Source: Bryobacterales bacterium
GTDB lineage: Bacteria; Acidobacteriota; Terriglobia; Bryobacterales; UBA6623
Assembly (NCBI GenBank): GCA_965206775.1
Contig: CBDBKU010000002.1
Span: forward strand, 2,115,705 to 2,179,704
Reading direction: 5' to 3'
DNA length: 64,000 bases
Position 1 is the stretch's first letter; every line of letters begins with the position of its first letter. Below, piece after piece: positions 6,451-57,600 of the stretch. The translations under genes and the position numbers were made by a program. The notes under the pieces were generated by a model. That model saw nothing but the letters and a program-made list of their open reading frames with translations. It searched no databases and was not told where the DNA came from.

Positions 6451-6898
6451 TAACGACTACTCCATTGACAATAAGGCACTTACCAACATTGCACTTGGCA
6501 GCGCAGCGTGAAGACGCGCCGGGCGCTCATCCTTGACCGGTAGTGCCTTCAATCGAAGCCTTCGATGCCCTATCCGCCAAGTGTATCCGGGTCTCTCTCT
6601 CATCTTTGGCGACTATCTTGAAAGCATGAGAGACATACTGTTCTCCAGCGAGTACGAGTCCTACGGAGGCAAACGTCACTTTGTTGCGTGGTTGTCGGGG
6701 GCGGATGATAGTCTGGATCTCTAGCCGTTGGTAGACCCAACAGCTAGCCCAATCGAGCAAGGCACTGGCCGGCGACAATTACTCTGGCCCGGGTCGGACG
6801 CTTGTCCGAGGTTTTCGGGCAGCACTCGGAAAAACTGCGCAAACTGGCAAGAAATAGCCTTATTAGGCGAATTTTACTGTGTTTTTCTCCGAAAATAC

Positions 6899-6927
6899 TT
6901 GATTCCTGCGATTCTATCCGATATACT
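6899..6927 (+). promoter_or_regulatory. Sigma70-like promoter of hicAB, probably leaderless
   Basis: TTGATT, 17 bp spacer, TATACT, then a TTG start 6 nt downstream. Confidence 0.55.
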
Positions 6928-6933
6928 ATAGAC

Positions 6934-7140
6934 TTGAACGGCAGGGAGTTCATGAGACGCGCCAAGCGGTACGCAGCAAGGAACCGCCTGGACTTCCGGT
7001 TCGAGCGGGGCGAGGGCAAGGGGAGCCACGGTCAGTTGTACGTCGGTCGTAGGCGGACCATGGTCAAACGCACCGAGCTCAGCAAGGGCCTGCTGCGGAA
7101 CATGCTCCGAGACCTAGGGATCAACAAGGAGGACTTCTGA
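6934..7140 (+). CDS. hicA: HicA toxin
   Basis: Small basic protein with GKGSH motif and ELSKGLLRNMLRDLGI; directly upstream of hicB. Confidence 0.8.
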   Translation: MNGREFMRRAKRYAARNRLDFRFERGEGKGSHGQLYVGRRRTMVKRTELSKGLLRNMLRDLGINKEDF

Positions 7141-7141
7141 A

Positions 7142-7585
7142 ATGCGATATGCCTACCCATGCAGGATCGACCGGGACGAGGACGGCGCGTTCGTCGTTTC
7201 CTTCCCGGACGTGACCGGAGCCAACACCGGTGCTGACGAACGTGCCGAGGCGCTGGAGCTGGCCGAGGACGCGCTCGCGGGGGCGCTCGGGATGTACGTC
7301 GAACTGCGGGAACCCATCCCTGTTCCGAGCCCCGTCATGGACGGTCAGGAGGTCGTCGCGGTGGACCTGGTGACGGCGGCCAAGCTGGAACTGTACACCG
7401 CGATGCGGGACCGGGGCGTGACCAAGCGCGCACTGGCGAAACGGCTGGGATTGTCCGATACCACCGTGGGCCGCCTGATCGCCCCGAACCGCCGTTCCCG
7501 CATCGACCGCATTGCCAAGGCGCTCCGGGCGGTGGGCCGGGGCCTCGTGGTCGAGGGCCGGACAGACCCCACTAGCGCGGACTGA
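7142..7585 (+). CDS. hicB: HicB antitoxin with C-terminal HTH
   Basis: FVVSFPDVTGANTGADERAEALELAEDAL...PIPVPS plus HTH (KRALAKRLG). Confidence 0.9.
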   Translation: MRYAYPCRIDRDEDGAFVVSFPDVTGANTGADERAEALELAEDALAGALGMYVELREPIPVPSPVMDGQEVVAVDLVTAAKLELYTAMRDRGVTKRALAKRLGLSDTTVGRLIAPNRRSRIDRIAKALRAVGRGLVVEGRTDPTSAD

Positions 7586-7596
7586 CTGGGCTACCT

Positions 7597-7848
7597 TCAA
7601 GGGCGGTTGCTATCGAAGTAATCCGGTTTGACCTTGATCACTTCACGTGCCCATAGATAGGTGTACCGAAGCGCGAAAACCACTCCGACGACGGGCGAGC
7701 TGACGGCGATCCCGCCGCCGATTGACATGGCGTCGGGGAGCATCATGAAGAACGGCCACATCGTGACGAACCCTATGATCACGGTGTAGGCGCAGGCCGA
7801 AGGCGTAGCCATCGATGAAGTGAGCACGTTGCTCGGCCATCGCTCCAT
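7597..7848 (-). CDS. Small hypothetical membrane protein or fragment
   Basis: 83-aa ORF with two hydrophobic segments. Confidence 0.3.
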   Translation of the reverse strand: MERWPSNVLTSSMATPSACAYTVIIGFVTMWPFFMMLPDAMSIGGGIAVSSPVVGVVFALRYTYLWAREVIKVKPDYFDSNRP

Positions 7849-8859
7849 ACAGACTGCGGAACGGCATTACGCTAGCTGGGACCGGCATCGGCGCGGGCGT
7901 CTCAGGGACACGATCGCCGTCCCGCTGCTCGCCGATGTGTCGATCAAGGACGTGTGAGCTTGCCGTTGGGCCACAGCAGCGTGAAAGAACCACGGAGGGC
8001 GACTATGCTCCGCGGGACCGGTCCCGGCGCGATTCGTGTGGGACGCCCACCAGCGGGACCCGCCGCTCTCGGATCTGTACGGGGATCTCACTTGGGAACC
8101 GAACCTGGGCGGCCAGATTCGAATCGAGTGCGCAAGCCCATGATTTCAGGGGATATACGGCCTATCGGCCGGTAGCCCGCAGTCAATCGCAACGCGCGAT
8201 CTCCAGTCGAGCAACCTTATCCGCACAAGAATCCCACCGCATCGACAATAGGCAAGCATCAAGGACGACGGATTCGATTCGTAGCAATTGCGGGGTTGAT
8301 CCGACTCGAACAGCGCCCAATAATGCTGGGCCAAGTGCCTGCTATGCACCTTGCCCCGCGACACACCTCCAAAGTGGGGGGGGGTGGGATTACGGCCGCA
8401 TATCCTCCTTGAACTCCGCATGCATCTCGGATAAGCGACCAAGGCCCTGGAATGGGTGCGTGCGGCCTCAAGAACTTGCCAACCAGATGGTGACCAACCA
8501 ACACGCCGCCGCCGGGAGCCCTTGGAAACAGGGTTTCCGTGGAGCCAACTGCATGCAAGCCTCTACGACACCTATTCGCCGCCGCCGCCATGCATGGCGT
8601 CCAAACGTTCTGCCCAAAGCAAGAGGACACCGACGCCTTCGCACAGAGCAAGCCATCTGCAATCGGCTGGTTCAGCCCCAACCGGATACTCAGCGGATTG
8701 ATGAACCTCGACGCCGAACTCCCGTTCCAGTCCGGTAATCAGGCCATCACGATGAATCGGACGAGCGCGGCGCTCGCCACACCGAGAATCACCCAGAAAA
8801 CCCCGATTCACGACTTCTTTGGCCCCATTAGGCGTCATCCAAAGCAACAGTTGACGGGC

Positions 8860-9062
8860 CTAGCGCCTGTCCAGCGCCTTGTACCACCTGCGCACAGTCG
8901 GACCGCCGGACGCGTCATCGTACCTAAAACACTCGGCAAGGTCGTCGATGGAGCCGATTATTGCGTGGAGCGCCGGAGCCGAGAGGCTGCTTCCCGAACT
9001 CGTCTCGTAGTGACTGACCCAGTTGCCGACAATCGCGGGCACATGCGAGTGGTCAACATCTA
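8860..9062 (-). pseudogene. C-terminal fragment of an unidentified protein, cut at the RIT palindrome
   Basis: Protein-like IVGNWVSHYETSS...IDDLAECFRY; begins right beside the 9068 palindrome. Confidence 0.3.
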
Positions 9063-9067
9063 GAATC

Positions 9068-9099
9068 TGCCGCTAATTCCGAGCTCGGAATTAGCGGCA
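9068..9099. repeat. Perfect 32-bp palindrome at a RIT junction
   Basis: TGCCGC TAATTCCGAG|CTCGGAATTA GCGGCA; contains the CGGAAT motif also seen at the RIT end 10340-10363. Confidence 0.95.
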
Positions 9100-9292
9100 C
9101 CGGTTCGCTGTCCGAACGCTGCTGCGGTGGTACCGCGACGGCGTCGATGTCGAGAGCCATCTGCCCTGTCTTGCGACCTATCTCGGACATGCGCACATGA
9201 GCGATACCTACGGGTATCTCACGGCCACCCCGGAACTGCTCCAGCTTGCTGCCAAGCGCCTCGACAGCGCAACCCGGAGGCTGCCTGCATGA
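9095..9292 (+). pseudogene. RitB-like tyrosine recombinase C-terminus, beginning exactly at the Arg-His codons
   Basis: RHRFAVRTLLRWYRDGVDVESHLPCLATYLGHAHMSDTYGYLTATPELL; homologous to the end of 24747..25691; ATGA overlap with the next gene. Confidence 0.85.
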
Positions 9293-10290
9293 CGTCCACA
9301 GCCGAATTCGCCCGCCTCCTGGCCGCCTTCTTCACCGACCGCCTCCAGCAGCAGCGGCGAGCCGGCCCCCATACCGTCGCCAGCTACCGGGACACCTTCC
9401 GCCTGCTCGTCCGTTACGCCCTGCGGGAATTGCACAAAGCGCCTGCCGCTCTGGAACTCGGCGATTTGGACACCGAGTTCCTCGGCGGCTTCCTGAACCA
9501 CCTTGAGATCGAGCGTGGCAACGACGCGCGGACCCGCAATGCCCGCTTGGTCGCAATCCGCTCCTTCTTCGGCTACGTCGCCGGGCAGGAGCCGCGGCAC
9601 GCGGCCTTGGCGCAACGCGTTCTGGCCATGCCGGCGAAGCGCTATACTCGCCGCCCGGTCGATTTCCTCGACCGCGACGAAATCGAGGCGCTGCTGGCAG
9701 CTCCGGACACGAGCACCCGGGCGTCGCGACCGCGCCCTGCTGGTCGTGGCGGTGCAGACCGGGCTGCGAGCGTCGGAACTGATCACCCTGAGTTGTGGAA
9801 TGCCCAGCTTGGCACGGGTGCCCATGTGCGCTGCGAGGGCAAGGGACGCAAGGAGCGTTGCACGCCGCTGCGCAAGGACTCGGCGGCGGCGTTGCGAACC
9901 TGGCTGGAAGAACGGCGCGGCGCACCGGACGCACCGGTCTTTCCCCACCGCAGTGGGGTCGCGCTCAGCCACGACGGGCTCGCCTACCTGCTGGCCAAGC
10001 ACGTAAAGGTCGCCCGAAAGACCTGTCCCTCGCTGACAGGGAAACGCGTCACTCCCCATGTGCTGCGCCACAGCGCGGCCATGGAATTGCTGCAGAACGG
10101 CGTCGATCGCAACGTGATTGCGCTATGGCTGGGCCACGAGTCGGTCGAGACCACCTATGTCTATCTGCACGCGAACCTCAAGCTGAAGGAGGCGGCCATG
10201 GCAAAGACCACTCCCTCTCAGGTGCCACCGAACCGGTACCGCCCCGAGGACGAGTTGCTGGCGTTCCTGAACAGCCGGTGGATATTCCGA
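9289..10290 (+). pseudogene. RitC-like tyrosine recombinase with compensating frameshifts at ~9715-9800
   Basis: Homologous to 25688..26686 (HTVASYRDTFRLL, GKGRKERCTPL, HVLRHSAAM, LWLGHESVETT); the RDRAL..QTGLRASE segment lies in another frame. Confidence 0.85.
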
Positions 10291-10364
10291 GTCAGATGTC
10301 TCATTCCGCACGAGCCCCGCCAGTCTTAAACCGTCAACTCGGAATAAGCCGAAACGCGGAATAG
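10283..10364. repeat. Right end of remnant RIT element
   Basis: TATTCCGAG followed by inverted CTCGGAATA and CGCGGAATA; the two CGGAATA copies are 17 bp apart (10340, 10357). Confidence 0.7.
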
Positions 10365-11090
10365 TGCCTTCAGTACGTGGGGATGGACGCGCTTGGCGGC
10401 CAGCGTCGGCACGGAGTTCGAGGCGACACCCGCATGCTTGCGCAGGATGCAGCGCACACCGAATCGCGTCAAGGGATGGCCAGAGCGATTGCGGAACAGC
10501 GGCTGCCTGCCGGCGGGATCCACGCCGCGGATTCGCATCAGCTCTCGCAGCAGCGCTGCGGTTTCCTTCCACAAGGGGCAATAGCGGCATTTGTCTCCCT
10601 TCCCGCGCAGTAGCGGTTGGCGCGGCCGGTCCAGTTGCAGGTCACAGGGACGCAGATCGAGGATTTCCTGGACCCGCGCCCCGGTGGTACAACAGCAGCG
10701 GCAGGGCGCGTTCCATGGCCTTCCCCTCGGCCGTGACGAGCAGCGCCCGGACCTCGCTTCTCGACAGCGGCATGGTGGGCGGCGCGTCGTCCTTGGGGAC
10801 CCGGAGCTTCGCCGCCGGCGGGCGCTCGATCCAGTCCGCATCGACCGCGAACGAGAAGAACGCCTTGGCCTGGGCGATCCGGGTCCGGCCGGTCCCCGGC
10901 GCGAGATTCCAAGACTGCCTCCAATCCCTGAGAACGCCGCTGCCCACCTGCTCGATGTCCTCGGCTCCGCGGTCGGTCGCGTACTGCCGCAGCACGCGCA
11001 GGAGGATCCCGTAGCCGCGCAGCGTCTCGCTTTTCCGCCCTTGGGCGTTCATGTCCCGCAAGAAAGCCTCGCACGTATCGGACAGCTTCG
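10365..11090 (-). pseudogene. Chimeric, frameshifted tyrosine recombinase truncated at HPHVL(RH)
   Basis: Core-binding N-terminal part (ETLRGY..KAFFSFAV..WIERPPA) joined to TGARVQEIL..GKGDK..RVHPHVL; ends at the RIT terminus. Confidence 0.75.
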
Positions 11091-11099
11091 TGCGGCGCC

Positions 11100-11572
11100 G
11101 CCCCTCCTGGGCCGCGCGATGTCGGCTCCCGGGATGGCGGGGTCCGGCAGCAGTTCCTGGTCGGCGCGGACTCGCTTGCTGTCTCGGAGCGCCGGGCGCC
11201 GGCTCCAAGGCCTGCCCGCGGCCTTGCTGGCCCGGTGTGATTCCCGCGCGCGCTCGGCCCGCAGATCCACCTCGAGCAGCGCCAGCGCGGCCATCACCGC
11301 CAACACGGCGTTTCCTCGCTGCGAACTGGTGTCGATCGCTTCGGAGATTGAGACCAGCTCGCACCCTCGGTGGCGAAGCTCAGCCGCCAGCGCGAGCATC
11401 TCGGCCGCAGGTGGCCCAGCGCGGCGTCGAACTGCGGGCGTTCGCTCTGGCGGTAGTTGCAGCGATCCGCGAAGATCCGCCCGCAGCCGCGCTCCCGCGG
11501 TTCCTGCATCTGGAAGCCGGGATCCTGGTCCGAGGTGGAAACCCGCCCGAAACCGACGACCGTGGTGTCCAT
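11100..11572 (-). pseudogene. Serine recombinase (resolvase/invertase), frameshifted
   Basis: GFGRVSTSDQDPGFQ, then ELVSISEAIDTSSQRG..VMAALALLEVDLRAER. Confidence 0.8.
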
Positions 11573-12166
11573 TGAACCAAGCCCGCGCCTGACTTCCTGT
11601 TGACTGATTCCTTGGACTCCTTGTCGGTCAATCGAGCACAGGTCAGGCGGCAATTCCGGTGCGCTCTGTGAGGTGTAACCAAATGAGCCGTCTTCGAGAT
11701 TCCCCCACGAGTCGCGGCGCTGCCACGCCGATAGCGTTTGGCCGTACCAATGTCGGGAGCAGGGATGGTGGCACCGACGGGGCCGAGTTCTTCGCGGCTG
11801 CAATTGGGACCACGGCAAGGTCCCGTGCGTGCGCGGCACCGGAACCGACCGGTCTTGTGGGATGCGTTGACGTCATCCCGGGCAAAGAGATCGTGGCCTT
11901 GGCGGAGAAAGGATTGCAAGGTCGTACCGAAGCTTCTTGTGCGGTCGCGACGGGCGCTATCTCACGACTAAGCCGATGCACGGCTTCTTCCCCCATCCTG
12001 CAGGCTCCCAGCGTTCGAAGCACGCCGATTGCGGAGCTGTACCAGCCACGTTCTCTGCGAATTGAAGGATTCTCCGTGTAACATTCAAATGTGGAGTGCG
12101 AGACGTCGAGCGCGTCGCCCCCTGCAATTCAGACCGCAGGGGTTAAGCAGGAACTGGGATAGATCG

Positions 12167-13891: not shown

Positions 13892-14261
13892 CCTGGCGTC
13901 CTCGAAAGACTCGCCAGTATTGACGGCTGCCGCCAGGGACGCGCCCGCACCGCTCCTACCCGCGCTGCTCCCGCAAACCCGTCGGCAAATGGGGGCCCCC
14001 CCAAGCCAGCCGCAGCCTGAAGCGCAAAACCCCAGCCCGATTTGCCGGAATTCCCCTTGCGGCCTCAAACGAATGCTGCAACAGCGCTAAACGAATGCCA
14101 TTGCCCGCCCCCCTACGGCGAGGACGAGCCGCCAGCCGCCGAACCGACGGTCGGCCCCTGGTCATCGGGCCGCACTGTTGGAACTGACCCTCGGGGTTTT
14201 CCTCAAGGTAGTGTTCCCGGGTAGTTCGGAGGCAGGCTCCCTGGATCCCAGGCTGCCGCTA

Positions 14262-15790
14262 TCCCCCGCCGCCGTCCACCTTGTGGTCCCCAGCGTCCGT
14301 GATGGCATGCGCTCCGAGATCGAGAACTGCGTCCGTCCCGCCCTCGCTCCGGATGCTCCCGCCGTTCAGTGTCAGCGCGTTTGCCGCGATGCCGATCCCA
14401 TCAGTGTCCACGTCCTCCGCCTGCACTTGGTAGCGGAAGAACAGGGCAGTCCCTTCACGACTCGGCGTCCAGAAGGAAGCGTGGCGCGTCTGGCTGCCCA
14501 CGGTGAGTGCCAGTCTGGGGCTTCCGGTGGCCTCGATCTGCGAGGTGAATAGGACCCAAACGGTGATGAATTCTCCCGCTCGGTAGGCGGTGCCGTTCGA
14601 GGGGCTGCTGAAAATCCCCGCGCCACTCACTTCCGGAGCAATCGCAATGCTGCCGTCCACCTTGTGGCCCGCGGAGTTCAAGATGGCGTGGGCAGCGAGA
14701 CCGAGATGCGCATCCGTCCCGCCCTCGCTCCGGATGCTGCCGCCGTTCAGAGTCAGCGCGTTCGCCGCGATGCCGATGCCATGAGTGTCCACGTCCGCCG
14801 ACTGCACCTGATAGCGGAAGAGCAGGATAGTCCCTTCGCCGCTCGGCGCCCAGAAGGAAGCGTGGCGCGTCTGACTGCCCACTGTGAGTGCCAGTCCGGG
14901 GCTTCCGGTGGCCTCGATCCGCGAGGTGAATTGGACCCAAGCGGTGATGAATTCTCCCGCCCGGTAGGCGGTGCCGTTCGAGGGACTGCTGAAAATCCCC
15001 ACGCCGCTCACTGTCGGCGCACTCGCAATGCTGCCGTCCACCTTGTGGCCCGCGGAGTTCAAGATGGCGTGGGCGCCGAGACCGACATCCGCATCCGTCC
15101 CGACCGCACTCCGGATGCTGCCGCCGTTCAGTGTCAGCGCGTTCGCCGCGATGCCAATGCCGTCCGTATCCACGTCGTCCGACTGCACCTGGTAACGGAA
15201 GAATACGAAAGTCCCGTCGCGACTCGGCGTCCAGTAGGAAGCGTGGCGCGTCTGGCTGCCCACGGCGAGTGCCAGTCGCGGGCTCCCGGCCGCCTCTATT
15301 CGGGTGGTGAATTGGACCCAAGCGACAATCGGTTCGCCCACCCCGTAAGCGGTACCGTTCGACGGGCTGCTGGAAATCCCCGCACGGCTTACCTTCGGGA
15401 CGGTCGCCATGCTGCCATCGACCTTGTGATCCGCGGCACTGGCAGTCACTGGTCCTGCAAGAGCGAGAGTCGAATCCGCGCCGCCAGCGGTCTCGATACT
15501 TCCGCCATTCAGAGTCAACGCGTCGGCCGCGATGCCGATTCCATCCGCGTCTCGATCCTCCGCCTGTACCAGGTAGTTGAATTCCAAGCTCTTGTAGCCT
15601 GCCTCGCAAACGCTCTTCGATCCATTGCCGGTCCAGGGTAACCGACGAGTGCGGTCGCCCACGCCGAGATCCAGTGCTGGTGTCCCGTCCACCTCGACAG
15701 GATCGGCGAAGCTTACGCGGACTCGGATCTCCTCGCCTGCTCCATAGGTGTCACCGTCTTGGGGATAGCCATCGATCGTCACGGCGTTCG
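14262..15790 (-). repeat. Four tandem ~381-bp (127-aa) coding repeats
   Basis: Unit SSPSNGTAY..GE.I...P.LALTVG..FRYQVQ..DVDTDGIGIAANALTLNGGSI..HKVDG; shared motif at ~14271, 14652, 15033, 15414. Confidence 0.9.
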
Positions 15791-17309
15791 CCCGCCGCCT
15801 TGCGGACGTGCTGCTGTACCGGGAAACGACCGTTGATGCCACTGGAATCTCGACACCTGTCTCGGTCCAGGTGGTTTCCCCCGGGCCGCTGCTCGCCTTC
15901 AAGACTCTCAGCAAGCCCCGGTAAGTAGAGTCGAGCACCACGCCGGCAGTGTTCGCCGTGACGGAAATCTCTTCCACGCCGCTGCCCGAACGGACCCATT
16001 CCTGCGGGTTGGCCGTGAGCCAGCTTGCATTCGAAACGATCCTGTACCGAACCGTGCCGGTTGTCTCGTGGGCCAGCCGGACCGTCTGTGGACCTGCTGG
16101 GGACACGAACGTGAGTGCCGGGGGCCAGGCCTTGACAATCCCGCTGCGACGGACTTCCACCGACAGCGCCCCCTCGATCCGCGCTAGCGTCGGCGGTACG
16201 GCAAGAGCGATGAAGTAGACCCCGTTGGACAGGCGCGGAACGGCTTCCCGATTGATCGAGATCGTCTCGGTCGCTCCTGGCGAGGTCGACTCGAAATCGG
16301 CGTGGATCAACGGCGTTTCCTCGGAGTCTCCCGGCTCCCCCCTGACGCTCCCGCCTCGGTGAACGTACAAGTCGACTTCTTCGGCCGACGACGATTGGAA
16401 CCGAACCGTCACCTCGGCCGCGTCTGGCGGTACCAGCACGTTGTAGCCCTCGCTCCCGCTGTAGAGATGAAACCGCTCGGAAGCGCCTAGCGTCACGCTC
16501 TTGGTTTCGCCAGGCCGGATCGGCTCGCTCTCAGCGAAAAAAGCTTCCAGGGTCTTGGCTGTGTCCATGACGATCGTCTGTACCGGCCCGGAGTCTGAGA
16601 CTTCGCCAGTCCATCCTGCAAAATGCCACCCGGGTCCGGGCTTCGCCGTGACCTGGACTCGCGTGCCGTCGGCATAGAAGCCATCCTCGGAGCGCGGCGA
16701 AATGTCGATGCCGGCATCGTCCGGGTGGTTGCGGCTGGCAACGCGAAGGCGATACTCCCGCGTGAACTCCAGACCGACCTTGCCACCGTTCTCGGGCACC
16801 TCGATCCGGTGGGCACGGCTTCCCCCGTCGCTCCAGCCCTTGAAGCGATACCGTATGTCGTCGAAGTCTGCTTCCTCGGGAACGGTCGCGGGTGCTTCCG
16901 CCCAGATGCCGCCGGGAAATGCGTCTGCCGGGAATGCCCACGGGATGCGTCTCGGCTCGCCGCCCAGGTGGACCCTGATCCCGTCTACGTTCGAGTCGAC
17001 GAGAAACGTGGGTTTCGCGGTGTAGATCGCGCAGAATTCAGTGATTCCGGTCCAGTGCGACGACCAGTAAGACCAAATGGGCGTGGTGCCTGATGCGGGA
17101 CTCGAAGAGGCTCCCGGGGCGGACCCTCTGCTGCGCCTGTCCGCGTCACGTCGCAGGTTCGGTACGGGATTCCACTGCAAGAAGTTGCTCGACCCGTCCG
17201 CTTTCGCCTCGACCTCGACCGGCTGTCTCTGCACGTGGAAGCCGTCCCGCGATTCGGGACGGACCGTCACGCTGCCAGCCTCGGACGGTGCGGCGCACGA
17301 CAGGATCCT

Positions 17310-19917: not shown

Positions 19918-21212
19918 ATCCTGCGCTGTGCGATGTAGTTCGCTTCGAACCACGTGGATTCCGGATCGGCCGTTACGTTGCGCCGGCTGCGGCCGTTGTC
20001 GCTCCAGCGCCCGAACACGAACCGCTCCGCACCGACCGTCTGAGGCGAGATTATTTGCAGAGTATGCGTGCTGCCGGGACTCCAATCGAACTGTGCGGGA
20101 GTCGTGACCGTTTCGCCGTCCACGAGGATCGCCAGCCCGGCGGGGTTTGTGGTGATCGTAGTGGCTGTCGGAACCGTCCCATACAGTCTGGCCACCCCGT
20201 CAATGTCTCCCGGCGACAAGCCCCCCGATCTCACGGGGATCCCAGGGGGGATCGTACCGACCCGAATGTAGTTCATGACCGAGGAGAAGTTGTAGGGCCT
20301 TCTACCCGGCGTGTCAGCGAGGTACGCAAACCCTATATCCCCGTAGGATTGTGCGTCGGCAACAGTGATGTACTCGTCTCGATCGTGCCGCTGGTGTTCG
20401 TGCAGCAAGCCCACGGCGTGGCCGATCTCATGGATCGTGGTGTCCACTCCGCAGCCGTCCGGGCTGGAGAGCCAGATCGACTGCTCTCCGCCTTTCCGTC
20501 CCAGATTTGCACGACAATAAGGCTCTGACGGGCGAAACCCCCTAGGCTGAAATCGAACATAGTCGGACTCTGTCGTTCTTTGAACCAACGTGATGACCGT
20601 CTTGGAATTCCACGCGTGGATTGCTTTCTCGATGTCGCTCAGCCCCTTCTCCGTAAAGCCCGCTTCGATCACGTACGGGACGATTCCGTCAGGCCAAAGC
20701 AGTTCGTCCTCGACCGCTGCGAGGTCCCGTCGATCCGGCCACGAGCCCGTCAAGACCTTTGTCGAAGGCTGTCTCGTGTACTCTGCTACCACCTCCTCGA
20801 CCGGGCCTAGGACCATGTCGCCCCCGTGGACGGCCAAGCCGTCCACGATCTCGTAGTGCAGTTCTTGCCCGCGAGAGATCGCGACCCCCGTGCGGACGAA
20901 TGGAACTGCCGCCTGACCGGACGCTGCATTGCCCCGTTGCGGCCGCACCGCCTGGCCGTCCGCCATCGCTGCTGCCGCTAGCGCAAGGACGAGCAATTGA
21001 GCTTGAAGCCGGATCGCTACAAGCCGACCCCGGACAGGAGCCGACCGGCACGGATGCCGGGCTGCAGACGAACGAATGCCAAGAGCATAGGGCCTTGGGG
21101 ATAACACCCCAAGCATGACGCGAACTCGTTGTTGGTCGGCTCCACCAATGGCATTGCGGTCTTCCCTGATTCCTCAACGGGACTTCAGAATCAGCGAGGT
21201 GGCTCGTTGTGA

Positions 21213-21943
21213 CTGGACTGACTCGTGACAGGTTTCGCGTGCTCGACAGCGGCGAGCAGCAAGAGATTTCAGTGTTCGAAGCCGACGAATCCGGATGCTG
21301 ATGCGCGATCCTGCTCGACACGACTGGCAGCATGAAGCGGGCGCTTCCCACGGTCAAGCGAGCGATCCTGGAATTCATCGACGATCTGCGATCGAACGAC
21401 TCGGTTGCCGTGTACGCTTTCAGCACGCAGCTGGAGCAGCTCCAGCCGTTCAAACTGGACAAGAACGAAGCGAAACGAGCTGTTCTGAAGACGCGTGCGG
21501 ACGGTGCCACGGCGCTGTTCGATTCCGTGCATCGCGTCACGAAGGATCTTGCCGGGGTCGATGGCAAGAAGGCGCTCCTGGTCTTTACCGACGGCGACGA
21601 CAATTCCAGCGTGCTCAACGCCCGATCAGCGATCCGACAGGCTCGAGCCGTCGGGGCGCCGGTGTTCGCGGCGGCACAAGGGCAAGCTCTCGAGAACCGC
21701 GACCTAGTCAAGCAGATCCACGAGCTGTCCCGATCCACTGGAGGCCTGGCATTCGAGGTGAAGGAGAGCGGCCAGGCGCAGCGGATCTTCTTCGAGATTC
21801 CCAGAGCGCTGAATCACGGCTATCTGCTTGCATTCCGCCCGCCTCAGGCAACGAGCGGCGAATGGCGAGACATCGAGGTGGCTGTGTCTGGAGTCAGGAG
21901 ACCGCAGATCCGCGCGAAGAGCGGCTACTTCGCCGTTCCGTAG
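21213..21943 (+). pseudogene. Acidobacterial VWA-domain protein copy 1 (5' truncated, small deletion)
   Basis: LLDTTGSM, GATALFDSV, KKALLVFTDGDDNSS, IRAKSGYFAVP. Confidence 0.85.
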
Positions 21944-22754
21944 GGCAGTGCTCCTGGAGCCCGCGGGCTGCACGGCCGGGAGGGAGGCTCCAGCGCGAGC
22001 CAGTCGCGCATGGTCCTGGCTGCGATGCATGCGCGTCGGGCCTTCTCCTGCCTCGCGGTCCGGCGTGCGGGGTTCCCGCCGCAGGGACTGGAAGGTCGCG
22101 ATAGCGCGGATCCGGCACTGGGCCAGATCGCGCGGGTGTCGGGTTCGGATGTCCTGCAGGGGGATTTCAAGGGGCGATCTCGGTTGTACGGCTTGCTGTC
22201 CCGAAGCCAGGAGGCTGCGGGCGCGGGCCGGCCGGAATGCCCGCCGGATTCCAATTGCGCAGGGAGTCGAGCGGGGCTGGCGGAGAAGGCGGCTGCGCCT
22301 CGGCGACGGCGCTCAGCCGGACCGGCACCGCAGGCGGGCCAAGATGAATGCGCGATCAAGCAGACAGGCGGAACCGGCCTCGCCACTTCCCTACCAGCAC
22401 ATGCAGACGGTTCCGCTCTCGGTCGGCGCTGCGGAAAATCACGAGCAGCATTAAATCGTTGAATCGGCTCCGCAGCACGGCATCGATGCGCTCGTTCGGG
22501 GCGGGTTCCGGCGTCGGGGAAATCGAGACGCTCGTCTCATGTCCGGTCGCGCTGCAGCATCTCGCTGGTGAAATTCCGCTGCCGGTCCCTCAAGCTCTCA
22601 CCGAAGCGGGTGCGAGAACATGTCCTGCCGGTCCCTCCGCGAGGACGTGCTGGACCCGGCAGCGATCGCGCGGGACTTGCAGGGCACTGACTCATCTGGC
22701 GCATCGGAGCAGCCGATGGCGGTGACGGCAGCCACACATAGTCGACTGGTGGGT

Positions 22755-23135: not shown

Positions 23136-23513
23136 GGGATCGCTCCCCTTTCCTTCAAAACCGCGTCCACTTCCTTCCAGAAATCCTCAAGCAGTGTGGA
23201 CGCATCCTTGTACATAGGGCCGGATCGTCCGCATCCGGTGCGGATGGTCGCGCTCCCCGCGTCGCCGCCTACCCGGGCCTCGCCTTTCCCTCACCGGGTG
23301 CGCATTGTCGAAACCGACCAGCCTAGTGCCATCCGGGGCGTGCAGCGTGAGCGAATAGCTCTTATCTCTTGCAAGAGATAAGCGGCATTATCTCTTGTTC
23401 TTTTTTATCTCAGGTAAATTCGGTTTTTCCATGTTTTCCATGTAGTAATTCGACGATTACACGACATAATCGGAACTCCAATCGTTGCCCTTCAATGAGG
23501 ATAGGAGTTCAGA

Positions 23514-24750
23514 ATGAGCGATACCACCGGCAATCCACTTGTCCGCCCACAATGGCGCGACGGTCCCTTGGCGGGCTGGCTCGATGCGTTCGCGGATTGG
23601 GTGAGCGCACAGGGCTACGCTCGCACAACGATCAGTCGCAAGATCCTGCTGGCAGCCTGTTTCAGCCAATGGCTCAAGCAGGGAGCAATCGAGCTCGCTG
23701 ACATCAACTCGGATCACCCGGCCCAATACCTCCAGCATCGAGCCCGCAGGCTGCGACCCCACCAAGGCGACAGAGCCGCACTTCGGCAACTAACAGATTT
23801 TCTGCAGCAAGAGGGCGTGCTGGCGTTCGAAGAGGCGCCCGCAGGCCCCATGACCGATGCCGAGCGCTGCGTGCAGGCCTATGCACACTACTTGCGCCAG
23901 ATGCGTGGCCTGGCACCGGCGACGCTAGCGAACTACCTGCCGTTTGTCCGGAGCCTGCTGCAGCACCGGTTCGCCTCGGGGCCTGTGACACTCTCGTCCC
24001 TGTCTGCTGACGCTGTCGTGCGGTTCGTTCAACGCAAGGCGCCGGATTTGCACCCGAAGCGTGCGAAGGTCATGGCCTCCGCGCTGCGGTCCTTTCTCCG
24101 CTATGCCTGCTATCTCGGCGAGACCAGTCCGGAGTTGATCGCCGCCGTTCCAGTGGTCGCCAACTGGTGCAGGCCACAGATACCGAGAGGGATTGCAGCC
24201 GATCGTTACCGCGCTGTTGGCCAGCATCGATCGCAGTTCCGCCTTGGGCCGTCGCGACTATGCCATGCTGCTGCTGCTTGCACGGCTGGGATTGCGTGCG
24301 AGCGAGATCCAGTCGCTCGAACTCGATGACATTAACTGGATCAACGGAACGCTGCGGCCGTGGACGAAAGGCGGGAAGCGCACCACTTTGCCCCTGTCCC
24401 AGGAGGTTGGTGAGGCGATCGCCGATTACCTGCGTCACAGCCGCCCGCCGTGTCAAAGTCGGAATGTATTCCTGCGTGTCAAGGCCCCGATCGGCAGATT
24501 CCGGGGGGCGAGCGGAATTTCCTGCGTGGTCCGCCGCGCCATCCAGAGTGCCGGCGTGGTCGCTCCGACAAACGGCGCACATCAGTTCCGCCACGGTCTC
24601 GCAGCCGGCATGCTGCACAACGGGTCCTCGCTCGCCGAGATCGGCGACGTTCTGGGGCACGCCCATCCCGACACCACCAAGATCTATGCCAAGGTTGATT
24701 TGGAGGCTCTCCGCGCACTGGCCCTTCCCTGGCCGGGAGGTGTCCGATGA
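23514..24750 (+). pseudogene. ritA: RitA tyrosine recombinase, frameshift near 24200
   Basis: ORFs 23514..24329 and 24193..24750 together give SALRSFLRY, RRDYAMLLLLARLGLRASE, HQFRHGLA, VLGH..TTKIYAKVD. Confidence 0.85.
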
Positions 24751-25691
24751 ACACGCTTCGCGAAGCCATCCACGAGTACATCGATATGCGGCGCAAACTG
24801 GGGTTCAAACTGAACAGCACGCGCCGGGCGCTGCTCGCCTTCGCCACGTTCATGGAACAGAAGCAGGCGCCATTCATCACTGTGGAACTGGCCCTTGCCT
24901 GGGCGCAGCAGCCCGTGCATGCCCAACCGTCGCATTGGGCACAGCGATTGAGCTACGTGCGCGTGTTCACACGCCATCGCAAGGCCGCCGATGCACGCAC
25001 CGAGATCCCGCCGCCCGGATTGCTGCCCTTTCAGCCGCAGCGGGCAAGACCCTATCTGTATACCGACGACGAGATCCGCAAGCTGCTGCAGGCTGCGCTC
25101 GACATGCCGTATGCCTACGAACGATGCGCATTGAATCCCTGGCTCTACCATTGCCTGTTCGGCCTGTTGATCGTTGCAGGCCTCCGCGTGGGGGAGGCGT
25201 GCAATCTCGAGCTCCGGGATGTCGATATCGACGCCGCGGTGCTGACCATACGCGGTGCCAAATTCGGTCGCGACCGTCTGGTTCCGTTGCACGGTTCGAC
25301 CTGCGCGGTCCTTGCCGACTATATCGCCCGGCGCGAGCGTCACTGGCAGAGGCGTCCGGTGACGCCTTTCCTGTTTGTTTCAAGCCGGGGCAAGCGGCTC
25401 GACCAGGCGAGTATCACCCGCACGTTCCACCAACTGTCGCGCCTGATCGGCCTGCGCGGCAAGACCGCCAGTCACGGGCCACGCCTTCATGACATGCGGC
25501 ACAGTTTCGCAACGAAGGCCTTGGTGAACTGGTATCGGCACGATCAGGATCCGGACCGTCTCCTGCCAGTCCTCTCCACCTGGCTTGGTCATGTGAAGGT
25601 CGCCGATACGCAATGGTATCTCGAAGCCTCGCCCGCATTGATGCGCGAGGCCATGCGCCGCCTCGAAAGCCGCTGGGAGGACCAGTCATGA
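24747..25691 (+). CDS. ritB: RitB tyrosine recombinase
   Basis: GLRVGEA, AKFGRDRLVPLH, HDMRHSFA, LSTWLGH, TQWYL; ATGA overlaps on both sides. Confidence 0.9.
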   Translation: MNTLREAIHEYIDMRRKLGFKLNSTRRALLAFATFMEQKQAPFITVELALAWAQQPVHAQPSHWAQRLSYVRVFTRHRKAADARTEIPPPGLLPFQPQRARPYLYTDDEIRKLLQAALDMPYAYERCALNPWLYHCLFGLLIVAGLRVGEACNLELRDVDIDAAVLTIRGAKFGRDRLVPLHGSTCAVLADYIARRERHWQRRPVTPFLFVSSRGKRLDQASITRTFHQLSRLIGLRGKTASHGPRLHDMRHSFATKALVNWYRHDQDPDRLLPVLSTWLGHVKVADTQWYLEASPALMREAMRRLESRWEDQS

Positions 25692-26686
25692 CCCAAACGA
25701 CCAGCCTGTCGCCCCTGCTGGAGCGATTCTTCGTTCAGCGCCTGATGAGTCAGCGCCAGGCGAGCCCGCACACCATCAAATCCTATCGGGATACCTTCCG
25801 CCAGCTCCTGCTCTTCGCACAGCTGGGTCTGGAACGACAACCGTCGGACCTGCAATTCGAGCAGATCGATGCGCCGCTGGTCGTGGCTTTCCTCGAGGAG
25901 TTGGAAACCAAGCGTGGAGTGAGCGCTCGCAGCCGCAACACGCGGCTTGCGGCTGTTCATTCCTTCTTTCGGTTCGCGGCCTTCGAACTGCCCAGCCATG
26001 CGGAACAAATCCAGAGGGTGCTCGCCATCCCCGGCAAGCAATACACGCGCAAGCAGGTCGATTTCCTCACACCGGACGAAGTTGATGCCCTGCTCGCGGC
26101 ACCGGATACCGGCACCTGGTCGGGACGGCGCGATCACGCCTTCATTCTCACCGCCGTGCAAACGGGATTTCGGCTGTCCGAAATGACAGGACTGAAGCGC
26201 GACGACTTTGTCGATGGCCATGGCCAGCACCTGCGCGTCGTGGGAAAAGGGCGCAAGGAGCGCTGCACGCCCTTGGCCAAGCCGACCAGGAATGTACTGA
26301 GGAGGTGGTTGCAGGAACCCCCGCGCGGCTCGGACCGCGTGCTCTTCCCCAGCGCCAGGGGCAATCGGCTCAGCGTGGACGGCGTGCAGTACATATTGAA
26401 CAAGCATCGGGAGACGGCCTCGCAGCAGTGCCCGTCACTGGCAGACAAACGGGTTACCGTCCATATCCTGCGTCACACCGCCGCGATGGACCTCCTGCAG
26501 GCCGGCGTGGACCGGTCGGTCATCGCTCTCTGGCTCGGACATGAACGCGTCGAGACCACTCAGATCTATGTCGAGGCAACGCTCGCCATGAAAGAGCAGG
26601 CACTTGCCAAGACATCGCCGCGAACAGGCGATTCGGGACGATACCAGCCGCCTGACGCTCTTCTCGCCTTTCTGGGCAGCCTCTGA
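25688..26686 (+). CDS. ritC: RitC tyrosine recombinase
   Basis: HTIKSYRDTF, QTGFRLSE, GKGRKERC, HILRHTAAM, LWLGHERVETTQIY; 332 aa. Confidence 0.9.
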   Translation: MTQTTSLSPLLERFFVQRLMSQRQASPHTIKSYRDTFRQLLLFAQLGLERQPSDLQFEQIDAPLVVAFLEELETKRGVSARSRNTRLAAVHSFFRFAAFELPSHAEQIQRVLAIPGKQYTRKQVDFLTPDEVDALLAAPDTGTWSGRRDHAFILTAVQTGFRLSEMTGLKRDDFVDGHGQHLRVVGKGRKERCTPLAKPTRNVLRRWLQEPPRGSDRVLFPSARGNRLSVDGVQYILNKHRETASQQCPSLADKRVTVHILRHTAAMDLLQAGVDRSVIALWLGHERVETTQIYVEATLAMKEQALAKTSPRTGDSGRYQPPDALLAFLGSL

Positions 26687-26952
26687 ACGCCATCGGATTA
26701 TGTCTGGTGAAATGTACGCAAGTGGCGAAAACTCTTTGGGTATGCTGCCACTTGGCGTGATTTCCAACAGTAACCCGAGATAAAAATGAACAAGAGATAA
26801 TAGCTCAGCCGGTGCGGCCGTTCCGCAGTCACCTCGGTTCGCAGCACAACGAACTTCACCCAGTGTCCGATCTCGTCTATAAACAGCGTCTGGCCGTGGA
26901 GGTCGAGTAGAGTGTCAAGCCCGGGATCACGGTCAGGCGCAGCACTGAAACA

Positions 26953-28699: not shown

Positions 28700-29622
28700 C
28701 CCGAGCTGCCGCCCTGCCCCTGGCCATCTCGCTCGCCCTCGGGCCCGGCGTCGGTTCGAGCCGCGCATTCGCGCAGGATCCGAATGCCGGTGTCCAATTG
28801 CCGGATGCATCCGAGGATGCGATCTTCACCGCCGTAGCGAGGCTGGTCGAGGTCCACGTGAGCGTGGCGGACGGGAAGAGGCGCTACGTCTCCGGACTGA
28901 CTCGTGACAGGTTTCGGGTGCTCGACAACGGCGAGCAGCAGGAGATTTCGGTCTTTGAAGCCGACGAATCCGGATTCTCGTGCGCGATCCTGCTCGACAC
29001 CACCGGCAGCATGAAGCGGGAGCTTCCCACGGTGAAGCGAGCGATCCTGGAATTCATCGACGATCTCCGATCGAACGACTCGGTTGCCGTGTACGCTTTC
29101 AGCACGCAGCTGTAGCAGCTCCAGCCGTTCACGCCGGACAAGAACGAAGCGAAACGAGCTGTTCTGAAGACGCGTGCGGACGGTGCCGCGGCGTTGTTCG
29201 ATTCCGTGTATCGCGTCACGAAGGATCTTGCCGGGGTCGAGGGCAAGAAGACGCTCTTGGTCTTTACCGACGGCGACGACAATTCCAGCGTGCTCAACGC
29301 CCGATCAGCGATCCGGCAGGCTCGAGCCGTCGGGACGCCGGTGTTTGCGGCGGCACAAGGGCAAGCTCTCGAGAACCGCGACCTAGTCAAGCAGATCCAC
29401 GAGCTGTCCCGATCCAGGGGAGGCCTGGCATTCGAGGTGAAGAAGAGCAGCCAGGCGCAGAGGATCTTCTTCGAGATTCCCAGAGCGCTGAAGCACGGCT
29501 ATCTGCTGGCATTTCGCCCGCCTCAGGCGACGAGCGACGAATGGCGAGACATCGAAGTGGCTGTGTCGGGAGTCAGGAGACCGCAGATCCGCGCGAAGAG
29601 CGGCTACTTCGCCGTTCCGTAG
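28696..29622 (+). pseudogene. VWA-domain protein copy 2, nonsense GAG to TAG at 29113-29115
   Basis: 927 bp, collinear with the intact copies, which read CTG GAG at this position. Confidence 0.9.
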
Positions 29623-29910
29623 GGCAGTGCTCCAGGAGCCTGGGCTGAATAGCCGGGGGGCTGCAGAGCGAGCCAGTCGTGCATGGTCTTAGCTGCGATG
29701 CGAGCGCTCCGGATGTCAGGTCCGAGAACCTGCAGGGCGGATTCTGGGGGGCGATCTCGGTCATACGGCCTCCTGTCCCGAAGTCAGGCGGCTGCGCTCG
29801 GGCGCGGTGGCGGTTGCGCGGATCGGCTCCTATGGTCTTGGGCATCTGACATGGCAAGGCTCGGCCCGGGTGCCCTTGACTTCGCACAGATGCCCGCCTA
29901 TCATCCCGCC

Positions 29911-42765: not shown

Positions 42766-43112
42766 CGCGCTCGCTGTGACGATGCAAGTGCCGCAAGCAT
42801 GACGCGCTCGATCGTGCGCGCCAGACGCGGTGCTGCCGCGGTCGCCCGGCGGCAATCGCTCGAATTGCAGCAAGCAAAAGTCATTGGATATGCTCGCCGG
42901 GTTGCATTGTTGCATTCGCTCGGAAACCTGCAAGGCGGCCTCGCAGCCGAACAAAGCAGCCGGATGTTGGTTTGGGGCAGGCCCTCAAGCCGCGGCGAAT
43001 GGGTCAGACTGCCCCGCCTGTGCGGATGTTACAAGGCTCTGAGCCTGTGCCTAGCCAGAAACGGGATGGAATGACAATTGCAATTCTCCTCCGGAATTCT
43101 TGATTGTCGTCT

Positions 43113-43450
43113 CCCGCGTGCTCAACGCCCGATCAGCGACCCGACAGGCTCGAGCCGTCGGGGCGCCGGTATTCACGGCGGCACAAGGGCAAGCTCTCGA
43201 GAACCGCGACCTGGCCAAGCAGATCCACGAGCTGTCCCGATCCACGGGAGGTCTGGCATTCGAGGTCAAGAAGAGCGGCCAGGCGCAGCGGATCTTCTTC
43301 GAGATTTCCAGAGCGCTGAAGCATGGCTATCTGCTGGCATTTCGCCCGCCTCAGGCAACGAGCGACGAGTGGCGAGACATCGAGGTGGCTGTGTCCGGAG
43401 TCAGGAGAGCGCAGATCCGCGCGAATAGCGGCTACTTCGCCGTTCCGTAG
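43113..43450 (+). pseudogene. VWA-domain protein copy 3 (3' fragment)
   Basis: VLNARSA..IRANSGYFAVP. Confidence 0.85.
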
Positions 43451-44268
43451 GACATTGCCCCCGAGCCTGGGCTGAATGGCCGGGAGGCTGCAGGGCGAGC
43501 CAGTCGCGCATAGTCCCGGCAGCGATGCGGGCGCGCCGGGCCTTCTCCTGCCTCGCGGTCCGGCGCGCGGCCGAACCGGTACCGCAAGCGGTCCAAGCGG
43601 AATGCGGGATCAAGTGCACTGGCGGAACCTGCCTCGCAACTGCCTTGCCAGCACCTGCAGACAGTTCCATTCTCGGTCGGCGGTGCAGTAACGCACGAGC
43701 AGCACGACGTTGTTGAAGCGGGTGTGCAGCACGGTATCGATGCGCTCGTCCGGGACGGGTTCCGCCGACGGGGGAATCCAGACGCTGGTCTCATGTCCGG
43801 TCGCACTGCAGCATCTCGCAGGTGGAATTGCGCTTCCAATCTCTGAAGCTCTCACCGACGCGGGAGCGAGAACATGTCCTGCCGGGATCTCGTTGCCGAC
43901 GTGCTGGACCGGGCAGCGATCACACGAGACTTGCAGGCACTGACTCACCTGGCTCATCGGAGAAGCCGATGGCGGTGCCGGCAGCCAACTATTCTGGCAA
44001 GGCGTGGATGGCATGCCAGCGAGGGACTGCTTTCAGGCAGCAGCGATGCGCGGACTGGTCCAGTGAGCGCCCGAATCGCGATCCATGCGACTCGCTGGCG
44101 CGCGCCATCTGGCGGAGACTCGCGGCCGGGTGGGAGATAGCGGGCACCGAACTCCACTTTGCGAACTGACCCCGAAGCGCTCGACCCTCCCGTCTTTGAC
44201 GATTTGAGAAGGGCTCTCGCCGGCAATGGAGATCCCGCCAACATGTGGGTCTTGCACTACCAAGGCGC

Positions 44269-56013: not shown

Positions 56014-56824
56014 GGCAGTGCTCCTGGAGCCCGCGGGCTGCACGGCCGGGAGGGAGGCTCCAGAGCGAGCCAGTCGCGCATGGTCCTGGCTGCGATGCAT
56101 GCGCGTCGGGCCTTCTCCTGCCTCGCGGTCCGGCGTGCGGGGTTCCCGTCGCAGGGACTGGAAGGTCGCGATAGCGCGGATCCGGCACTGGGCCAGATCG
56201 CGCGGGTGTCGGGTTCGGATGTCCTGCAGGGGGATTTCAAGGGGCGATCTCGGTTGTACGGCTTGCTGTCCCGAAGCCAGGAGGCTGCGGGCGCGGGCCG
56301 GCCGGAATGCCCGCCGGATTCCGATCGCGCAGGGAGTCGAGCGGGGCTGGCGGAGAAGGCGGCTGCGCCTCGGCGACGGCGCTCAGCCGGACCGGCACCG
56401 CAGGCGGGCCAAGATGAATGCGCGATCAAGCAGACAGGCGGAACCGGCCTCGCCACTTCCCTACCAGCACATGCAGACGGTTCCGCTCTCGGTCGGCGCT
56501 GCGGAAAATCACGAGCAGCATGACATCGTTGAATCGGCTCCGCAGCACGGCATCGATGCGCTCGTTCGGGGCGGGTTCCGGCGTCGGGGAAATCGAGACG
56601 CTCGTCTCATGTCCGGTCGCGCTGCAGCATCTCGCTGGTGAAATTGCGCTGCCGGTCCCTCAAGCTCTCACCGAAGCGGGTGCGAGAACATGTCCTGCCG
56701 GTCCCTCCGCGAGGACGTGCTGGACCGGGCAGCGATCGCGCGAGACTTGCAGGGCACTGACTGATCTGGCGCATCGGAGCAGCCGATGGCGGTGACGGCA
56801 GCCACATATAGTCGACTGGTGGGT

Positions 56825-57205: not shown

Positions 57206-57570
57206 GGGATCGCTCCCCTTTCCTTCAAAACCGCGTCCACTTCCTTCCAGAAATCCTCAAGCAGCGTGGACGCATCCTTGTACTCATAGGGCCGGATCGT
57301 CCGCATCCGGTGCCGATGGTCGCGCTCCCCGCGTCGCCGCGTACCCGGGCCTCGCCTTTCCCTCACCGGGTGCGCATTGTCGAAACCGACCAGCCTAGTG
57401 CCATCCGGGGCGTGCAGCGTGAGCGAATAGCTCAGCCGGTGCGGCCGTTCCGCAGTCACCTCGGTTCGCAGCACAACGAACTTCACCCAGTGTCCGATCT
57501 CGTCTATAAACAGCGTCTGGCCGTGGAGGTCGAGTAGAGTGTCAAGCCCGGGATCACGGTCAGGCGCAGC
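57202..57570 (-). CDS. DUF6516/TumE-like toxin (start codon uncertain)
   Basis: LDTLLDLHG..ERPHRLSYSLTLHAPDGTRLVGFDNAH..DHRH..YEYKDASTLLEDFW; ATGA overlap with the HTH gene. Confidence 0.75.
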   Translation of the reverse strand, partial: AAPDRDPGLDTLLDLHGQTLFIDEIGHWVKFVVLRTEVTAERPHRLSYSLTLHAPDGTRLVGFDNAHPVRERRGPGTRRRGERDHRHRMRTIRPYEYKDASTLLEDFWKEVDAVLKERGAIP

Positions 57571-57579
57571 ACTGAAACA

Positions 57580-57600
57580 TGTTATCAGTTTCTGATAACA
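57580..57600. promoter_or_regulatory. Palindromic operator (copy B)
   Basis: TGTTATCAG-TTT-CTGATAACA. Confidence 0.6.

Follow-up and report, generated by a model that had tools for sequence, protein, structure and literature searches.

The window analysed here, a stretch of 64,000 nt of the genome of a Bryobacterales bacterium (assembly GCA_965206775.1, contig CBDBKU010000002.1), contains two elements of the Recombinase-In-Trio (RIT) type, in which the recombinase genes ritA, ritB and ritC follow one another. The first, named RIT1, is a dead remnant (9068–10371) that consists of the tail of ritB, a frameshifted ritC and the right inverted repeat. Of the second, RIT2, the window contains the copy named A. 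The junctions of these and related elements with their targets point to integration through a 6-bp hexamer, which is the subject of this report. The genome amounts to 6.9 Mb in three contigs, two of which are cited below as C2 and C3; the features in question are collected in Table 1.

The remnant and its interrupted target

The inspection of the left side of RIT1 showed a perfect 32-bp palindrome (9068–9099) composed of a hexamer, a 20-bp palindrome named pal1, and the inverted hexamer. An earlier note on this DNA had described this palindrome, its 10 + 10 core (TAATTCCGAG followed by CTCGGAATTA) and the GCGGCA that follows, and all three were found as described. In pal1 the RIT1-type arm motif occurs twice, back-to-back, around a self-complementary 6-nt centre; the 20-mer has one further identical occurrence in the genome (C3:359879), also next to ritB tails. 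The ritB frame (G-CGG-CAC-CGG-TTC, RHRFAVRTLLRWYRDGVDVESHLPCLATYLGHAHMSDTYGYL...) starts at the Arg-His (RH) codons contained in GCGGCA, again as previously noted, and remains open for 65 codons until a TGA (9290–9292) that overlaps the ATG of ritC at 9289 (ATGA). By tblastn it matched residues 198–308 of RitB. A contig of sequencing run X10, related to the window, reads ...HDMRHRFAVN into window position 9116, across the break, indicating that an intact relative of this ritB exists.

The ritB tail and ritC show the RH and LGH...Y motifs, although the RIT1 ritC lacks the first catalytic region: two frameshifts garble the stretch around the first catalytic Arg, and the one-frame match to PF00589 begins only at profile position 55. 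A related ritC copy in contigs of public sequencing runs has an additional GGGCG after 9718 and an additional C after 9798. In each of the four sequencing runs compared, a second contig, ∼95% identical to the window ritC over 9510–9810, carried these five- and one-base additions and had an undisrupted frame; this copy was not found in the three-contig assembly. RIT1 keeps its right inverted repeat only, and there the end motif CGGAATA occurs at 10340–10346 and 10357–10363, with the 17-bp spacing previously reported. Just upstream of this repeat, at 10279–10313, two arm-like motifs in opposite orientation (ATATTCCGAG ... TCATTCCGCA) stand in place of the usual RitC C-terminus (...LLAFLNS, then unrelated residues); an inverted arm of this kind also lies inside a 381-bp element on C3, termed mini-RIT, ∼70 bp from the right end. 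A fragment at 7790–7954 with an LLGH...Y tail was considered as part of the structure and rejected, there being no palindrome or hexamer at its edge.

At its right end RIT1 cuts a Phage_integrase open reading frame (ORF), intX. The minus strand at 10355–10385 reads ...CAT CCC CAC GTA CTG A AGG CAC, and the element (TATTCCGCG) follows. The earlier note had placed the cut at HPHVL(RH) and read the adjoining hexamer as AAGGCA. The cut stands, while the hexamer is best taken as the native AGG-CAC to which a single A has been added, because a paralogue of intX with 97.5% identity (C2:2083530) has GTA CTG AGG at the same place (GTACTGAGG) and the ritC of another RIT family of this genome, F6, has GTG CTG CGC CAC ACC (GTGCTGCGCCAC) at the homologous place. 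A general NNGGCA hexamer rule, which rested on the misread AAGGCA, was abandoned; the other hexamer of RIT2 is TAGCTC. Further upstream intX is frameshifted, and it shares 77% DNA identity with the F6 ritC. The paralogue is itself cut at the same Leu-Arg codons (C2:2083330–2083530) by a different sequence (AGGAGC-GGTTTTTGGCC...) that has its own inverted repeat, spaced by 60 nt, and that may terminate an element of some other kind sharing the site.

Table 1. Position of the window features, and RIT families delimited in the genome (H, target hexamer)
Feature	Position	Strand	Remark
Outer hexamer TGCCGC, reverse complement of GCGGCA; left edge of the 32-bp palindrome	9068..9073		
pal1, 20-bp palindrome TAATTCC-GAGCTC-GGAATTA	9074..9093		
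Inner hexamer GCGGCA: G + CGG (Arg) + CA of CAC (His)	9094..9099	+	
ritB 3′ remnant, 65 codons, catalytic Arg-His to stop (RHRFAVRTLL...LGH...Y...)	9095..9292	+	
ritC pseudogene, start overlapping the ritB stop	9289..10329	+	50% identity to RIT2 RitC (tblastn)
RIT1 right inverted repeat; terminal 10-mer CGCGGAATAG	10339..10364	+	75% DNA match to mini-RIT right end (C3:358669-358801)
intX, head of interrupted tyrosine recombinase, ends ...KRVHPHVL just before RH	10362..11048	-	PF00589 profile 31-132 of 172
Junction with target, G-A-AGG-CA: native Arg(AGG)-His(CA.) codons of intX + one extra A	10365..10371	-	
Outer hexamer of RIT2 copy A, TAGCTC, present again at 26801-26806	23356..23361		
pal2, 20-bp palindrome TTATCTC-TTGCAA-GAGATAA	23362..23381		Accompanies each of the three RIT2 copies
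Inner hexamer of RIT2 copy A, GCGGCA; serves as outer (target) hexamer in B and C	23382..23387		
RIT2 copy A, 3,413 bp: ritA (frameshifted), ritB, ritC; 29-nt terminal inverted repeats	23388..26800	+	
Second TAGCTC copy (target hexamer)	26801..26806		
Empty paralogue of copy A target: single TAGCTC in TumE toxin gene (57205-57750, minus)	57428..57433		BLAST of flanks; PF20126
Family F1			7 copies; H = ATCGAG
Family F2			4 copies; H = TCGCAA/TTGCGA
Family F6			3 copies; H = CCCACA
Mini-RIT, 381 bp (locus L014)	C3:358419-358799		1 copy; H = GCGCCA

A shared arrangement of hexamers and palindrome

RIT2 is bounded by inverted repeats (23387–23415 and 26773–26801, 93% complementary), and the motif TTATCTC occurs in its left end at 23388–23394 and 23405–23411, 17 bp apart, as the motif CGGAATA does in RIT1. 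Its three ORFs are adjacent on one strand; RitB and RitC match PF00589, and the RitA of copy B (C2:104604–108030; 415 residues) matches profile positions 3–169 and has a SAM-like domain. The element thus contains three XerC/D-like recombinases and no fourth gene. In copy A, ritA (23514–24750) is frameshifted, with an ORF that stops after 271 codons, and this copy is therefore probably non-autonomous; copy B is 99.9% identical to it, with a length difference of 2 nt.

The three RIT2 copies (99.2–99.9% identity) occupy two kinds of site, and for one of these an empty paralogue was available. Both flanks of copy A matched a paralogous stretch of the window that has a single TAGCTC, while at the occupied site TAGCTC stands on either side of a block formed by the palindrome, GCGGCA and RIT2. 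By this empty-site comparison, the 6-bp hexamer corresponds to the target repeat and putative crossover region. The GCGGCA at 9094–9099 beside RIT1 would, by analogy, likewise be a crossover region. A location of copy A inside a recombinase gene was considered and rejected: its target is the TumE toxin gene, to which the sequence HRLSYSL is native. The gene is part of a segment present four to five times in the window with 80–99% identity (21196–22600, 28875–29750, 43112–43860, 55266–56680 and 59502–60480), which also carries an HVO_A0114-type helix-turn-helix (HTH) gene; one of these segments is the RIT2 target.

Copy A reads GCGAA-TAGCTC-pal-GCGGCA-(ritA end...ritC end)-TAGCTC-AGCCGG, with GCGGCA between pal2 and the left end of RIT2, where it had already been noticed. 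Copies B and C, which are one insertion duplicated later along with its surroundings, read GCGAA-TGCCGC-pal-GAGCTA-(ritC end...ritA end)-TGCCGC-AGGCAG. The inner hexamer of each form is the reverse complement of the target hexamer of the other, and relative to the palindrome the element has opposite orientations in the two forms. Compared as sequences, the two forms read as circular permutations of one putative circle, ...ritC end-TAGCTC-pal-GCGGCA-ritA end.... Since the inner hexamer of one copy is the target hexamer of the other, it is inherited rather than copied from the new site. Copies B and C have as their target CAC TGC CTG CGG CAT TCG (HCLRHS, coding strand), in the ritA of a neighbouring RIT, the head of which ends at PF00589 profile position 136 of 172; interrupted target heads end at positions 132–136 of this profile.

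A tblastn search located about 30 RIT loci in the genome, many of them truncated or nested. Every family that could be delimited, by comparison of copies, motif scan and inspection of C3:358301–360000, had the order target-left, H, RIT, H′, 20-bp palindrome, H, target-right, in which H has 6 bp and the palindrome is built from the terminal arm motif of the family itself, present twice and back-to-back. In F1, F2, F6 and the mini-RIT, H′ is the reverse complement of H, which generates perfect 32-bp palindromes, and copies of F1 and F6 were found in both orientations relative to palindrome and target. Genome-wide there were 94 perfect palindromes with a half-length of at least 10, with a peak of 18 at half-length 16 and two more at 17; by their AT-rich arm motif, 17 of these last 20 read as RIT-type. 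With uniform bases about 0.002 perfect 32-bp palindromes would be expected per 6.9 Mb, and chance is therefore no explanation for the one in the window.

The targets of these families differed. The F1 target 13-mer (GGAAGATCGAGAA) occurs 19 times, 12 of them uninterrupted (...RWKIENE...) and seven followed by the palindrome and F1; the uninterrupted sites lie in a transposase ORF with marginal DDE_Tnp_1 hits. F2 is inserted seven codons into a gene for an HTH + rve protein. The mini-RIT splits a ritC cleanly at AHLL-RH-TAATHML, with GCGCCA on both sides. It has both inverted repeats and its own 20-bp palindrome but no recombinase gene, and is a non-autonomous passenger of the RIT machinery. 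At C3:45950–45995 and C3:1335703–1335734 the same palindrome (TAATGGAGAT followed by ATCTCCATTA) and the same target flank were accompanied by different outer hexamers (reverse complement of TGAGGC versus CGTGCA), which may be a second case of hexamer exchange.

The survey was extended to other genomes with an alignment of four RitC sequences, an alignment of 12 being too diverse as a query, and it is thereby biased to the RIT2 lineage; R262, H263 and Y294 were conserved across the 12. It retrieved 80 RIT loci from many phyla, with RitC identities of 53–97%. A script identified inverted repeats bounding 3.2–3.6 kb in 53 of them, and a 20-bp palindrome (at most two mismatches) lay at exactly one end in 31 of these 53 (at the ritA side in 22, at the ritC side in nine) and at both ends in none. 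An H..RH motif ended at the boundary in 15 of the 53, typically with ...LRH before and Y(A/S) after the break, although one case (L084) is doubtful; in the 12 loci showing both features, the RH motif was always at the end opposite the palindrome. Among the 88 element ends with at least 40 nt of flank, 14 had H..RH, compared with 177 of 18,783 random positions (0.9%) and 472 of 20,000 coding-strand positions within RIT genes (2.4%). Tails of the ritB kind (RH-R/G-F-A/T) match the target flank seen elsewhere (C/T-NNN-TTY-GC), and ritC tails do not. Targets other than recombinases included an IS66 transposase (PF03050, E = 4.6e-57), broken after ...YSLIVTA, and an HTH + Mu-transposase-C protein. 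The proposal of the earlier note that these elements target HxxRH codons is hence borne out as an enrichment, but one that is specific to certain lineages. Targeting of recombinases is not general, because RIT2 copy A is in the TumE gene and other families are in transposase genes; the choice of target depends on the DNA sequence of the site and on the lineage, and not on the gene being a recombinase.

Hexamers were counted in 24 parsed loci, 12 of them with RH targets, after ten had been dropped (L021, L045, L054, L072, L084 and L097, for which the parser was mis-set, and four with N or short flanks). The left and right hexamers were identical in 13 loci, differed by one base in six and by more in five, and the differences were often synonymous for Arg or His (CGT/CGC, CGA/CGC, AGA/CGC), as expected if one junction retains the hexamer of an earlier RH site. 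The inner hexamer was the exact reverse complement of the right-hand one in 11 of the 24. Hexamers varied from site to site (GCGCCA, GCGTCA, CAGGCA, TCGACA and others), so GCGGCA is no fixed part of the element end; together with the reciprocal hexamers of RIT2, the left/right differences in 11 of the 24 loci agree with the earlier suggestion that a hexamer is carried to the next site.

A probable double-core circle and its alternatives

This arrangement would arise if a tyrosine recombinase exchanged strands across 6 bp to yield target-left, H, (arm...RIT...arm′), H′, 20-bp palindrome (arm-arm′), H, target-right. Excision would yield a circle with H′-palindrome-H between the two element ends, that is, two adjacent arm′-6-arm (10-6-10) core sites sharing the palindrome. 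Either core site could recombine with a target of matching hexamer, even where the match is imperfect, and the hexamer left unused would be kept as a record of the earlier site; with either core site usable, the element could land in either orientation. A RIT2 circle integrating through one or the other site by 6-bp identity would give exactly form A or form B. For the lineage of the window, the preferred hexamer and its flanks would be the codons CTN-CGN/AGR-CAY-...TTY-GC (L-R-H-x-F-A) of tyrosine-recombinase genes, and an insertion would accordingly break such a gene at its catalytic Arg-His codons. RIT1 of the window would first have entered intX at AGG-CAC. A palindrome-bearing site, either its own or that of a sibling, would then have recombined with the GCGGCA of the RIT1 ritB, which would have deleted ritA together with the left end and the 5′ portion of ritB and left the solo 32-bp palindrome behind; self-targeting is plausible for this ritB break. 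We regard it as likely that RITs of this lineage integrate through a 6-bp hexamer by such a palindromic double-core circle; both junctions of RIT1 in the window lie at Arg-His codons.

Several observations weigh against this reading. The circle junction, the excision product and movement are all unobserved, and the sequencing-run contigs covering 8000–11500, which as assembled contigs do not resolve circles, inversions or strand, stop at the palindrome. The left flank of the remnant (8863–9072, minus strand) contains no recognisable recombinase tail. It had no Pfam or NCBIfam hit and no paralogue in the genome, its BLASTP match to a RitC tail (E = 0.045) had no hhalign support, and a single 30-base match (E 2.5e-5) was found among 40 related genomes searched. 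None of these searches supported this flank as the missing tail of intX, so that one more rearrangement, at the least, has to be supposed. In locus L032 both halves of an RH target abut the ends with no palindrome present, which makes the palindrome not obligatory, and 22 of the 53 surveyed loci lacked a palindrome, several of them having short flanks or a weak inverted-repeat call. The palindrome centres were self-complementary in 16 of the 24 parsed loci, which a two-site model does not require. Finally, in the loci of other genomes target-left and target-right are only presumed to belong to one gene.

For the window alone, a different history is possible, although doubtful: the solo palindrome might be the leftover of a sibling RIT that inserted into the ritB of RIT1, in a double-target event with no self-deletion of RIT1. 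Two core sites recombining with separate targets would have separated this palindrome from the RIT it belonged to and placed the unrelated left flank beside it. The second pal1 20-mer is consistent with this, since at C3:359872–359905 it is flanked by different ritB tails, which face each other head to head and both start at CGT CAC (RH). The pal1 arms (TAATTCCGAG) are also unlike the RIT1 terminal arm (CTATTCCGCG); however, palindrome arms differ slightly from terminal arms in other families too, and this mismatch therefore does not exclude that the palindrome is RIT1's own. The reciprocal product, a RIT between two recombinase heads, was not found for this family, and ends of the CTATTCCGCG type were present only at the window and the mini-RIT.

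The 32-bp palindromes could instead be remade at each insertion if the RIT enzymes resembled telomere resolvases or hairpin transposases and worked through a linear, closed-end intermediate, the target hexamer and one arm being copied across the hairpin. Telomere resolvases cut 6 bp apart about the midpoint of a perfect palindrome and thereby form hairpin ends; the elements here show such a palindrome with, in many cases, a self-complementary centre. Such a fold-back would explain the perfect dyad symmetry, the sharp length peak at exactly 32 bp, the self-complementary centres (also present in pal1, pal2, F1 and F6) and the inner hexamers that are exact reverse complements of the outer ones in F1, F2, F6, the mini-RIT and both pal1 sites. 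Further, the accessible part of Nielsen et al. 2017 (PMC5737581) describes exonuclease-protected RIT DNA with circle junctions undetected, and proposes hairpins. This explanation is nevertheless unlikely: in 13 of the 24 parsed loci the inner hexamer was unlike the reverse complement of the right-hand one (by at least two positions in seven), the RIT2 inner hexamer is the target hexamer of the other copy and so was inherited, and the palindrome stops at the hexamer with no extension into the target. As for the notion that there is no targeting, and that the RH breaks reflect recombination, homologous or illegitimate, between recombinase paralogues where these are most conserved, with RIT ends arriving secondarily, the many truncated or nested RIT loci of the genome and the extra rearrangement needed for the window left flank speak for it, but it is very improbable given that the mini-RIT and RIT2 copies B and C are clean insertions with both target halves and the 6-bp repeat kept, that junctions are exact to the base at the arm motif, that the rule also holds in unrelated phyla, and that non-recombinase targets show identical anatomy.

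In a wider sense RITs might, at a little under even chances, be hunters of other mobile elements, with a symmetric double core, two exchangeable 6-bp labels and a lineage-specific tuning to the conserved catalytic codons of their rivals. The attachment site would be end-H′-arm-arm′-H-end, with four half-sites, and the tuned targets would include the Arg-His of tyrosine recombinases, the T-A-K-L-N stretch of IS66, and motifs of IS21-like and DDE_Tnp_1 transposases. A rival would be disabled on entry, and the element would ride on it and re-address itself by the new hexamer. Between them, the three recombinases may divide up the arms of the element and the two dissimilar half-sites of the target. 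Many bacterial phyla harbour RIT elements, and a general ecological rule by which they insert in conserved catalytic codons of other mobile elements' genes would explain the nested and truncated recombinase genes of many genomes and aid the annotation of integrase pseudogenes ending in ...LRHY. The model drawn from the sequences is falsifiable in its 6-bp crossover, palindromic double site, orientation flipping and hexamer inheritance, and this one genome offers natural substrates for it: a RIT2 copy that looks intact, an empty site and two targets already known.

Known systems and neighbouring genes

In Cre-loxP, FLP-FRT and Xer-dif, inverted recombinase-binding arms surround a crossover region of 6–8 bp, and integrases of the Tn916 type accept 6-bp coupling sequences that are not identical, and the element takes these along when it moves (the coupling sequences of Tn916 and CTnDOT). 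RITs differ from these in apparently having two back-to-back cores that share a palindrome, and in target half-sites that are barely arm-like. The Tn5053/Tn402 'res-site hunters' and homing introns and inteins choose conserved sequences of other mobile elements or essential motifs, which are abundant and safe targets; their enzymes and chemistry differ from those of RITs, which break a rival recombinase at its catalytic Arg-His or a transposase within a conserved motif.

Tn554, SE and GInt resemble RITs in having several recombinase genes and site-specific insertion, although their gene sets (TnpA/B/C; IntA/Tfp/IntB/Srap) are different from those found here. In the accessible part of PMC10214605, SEs and Tn554 carry a 6-bp stretch of donor flank into the new site, as seen in the reciprocal hexamers of RIT2, a likeness of behaviour only; in the same part, no palindrome is described at the ends of Tn554, SE or GInt. 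The targets of these elements are chromosomal att sites, not conserved codons in the genes of other mobile elements. Table 1 of that paper (Idola et al. 2023, Mob DNA) lists the target specificity, empty site and movement of RITs as not tested. The accessible parts of Van Houdt et al. 2009 and 2012 agree with the present elements in the ritA-ritB-ritC order, short overlaps, length of ∼3.4 kb, terminal inverted repeats and identical copies within a genome; those of 2012 also mention an inverted repeat and an 'overlapping palindromic sequence', together with RITs located in radC and in a transposase gene, and offer no model of the ends. Smyshlyaev et al. 2021, in its accessible part, gives only a classification of RitA, RitB and RitC. 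A literature search on RIT targets found nothing, which does not exclude a prior description. Relative to these accessible parts of the literature, the H-RIT-H′-palindrome-H anatomy, the proposed 6-bp crossover, the lineage-specific targets at conserved codons of mobile-element genes and the reciprocal hexamers are new.

Three other features of the window were noted. A HicA-like and HicB-like toxin-antitoxin pair lies upstream of the remnant (6802–7585; PF07927, below the curated cut-off, and PF15919). Directly upstream of intX, on the minus strand, there is a serine resolvase fragment (11052–11627; PF00239, profile 75–144). Further along, a minus-strand ORF of 1003 aa (14259–17270) contains at least four tandem 381-bp repeat units, with 73–87% identity to the reference unit.

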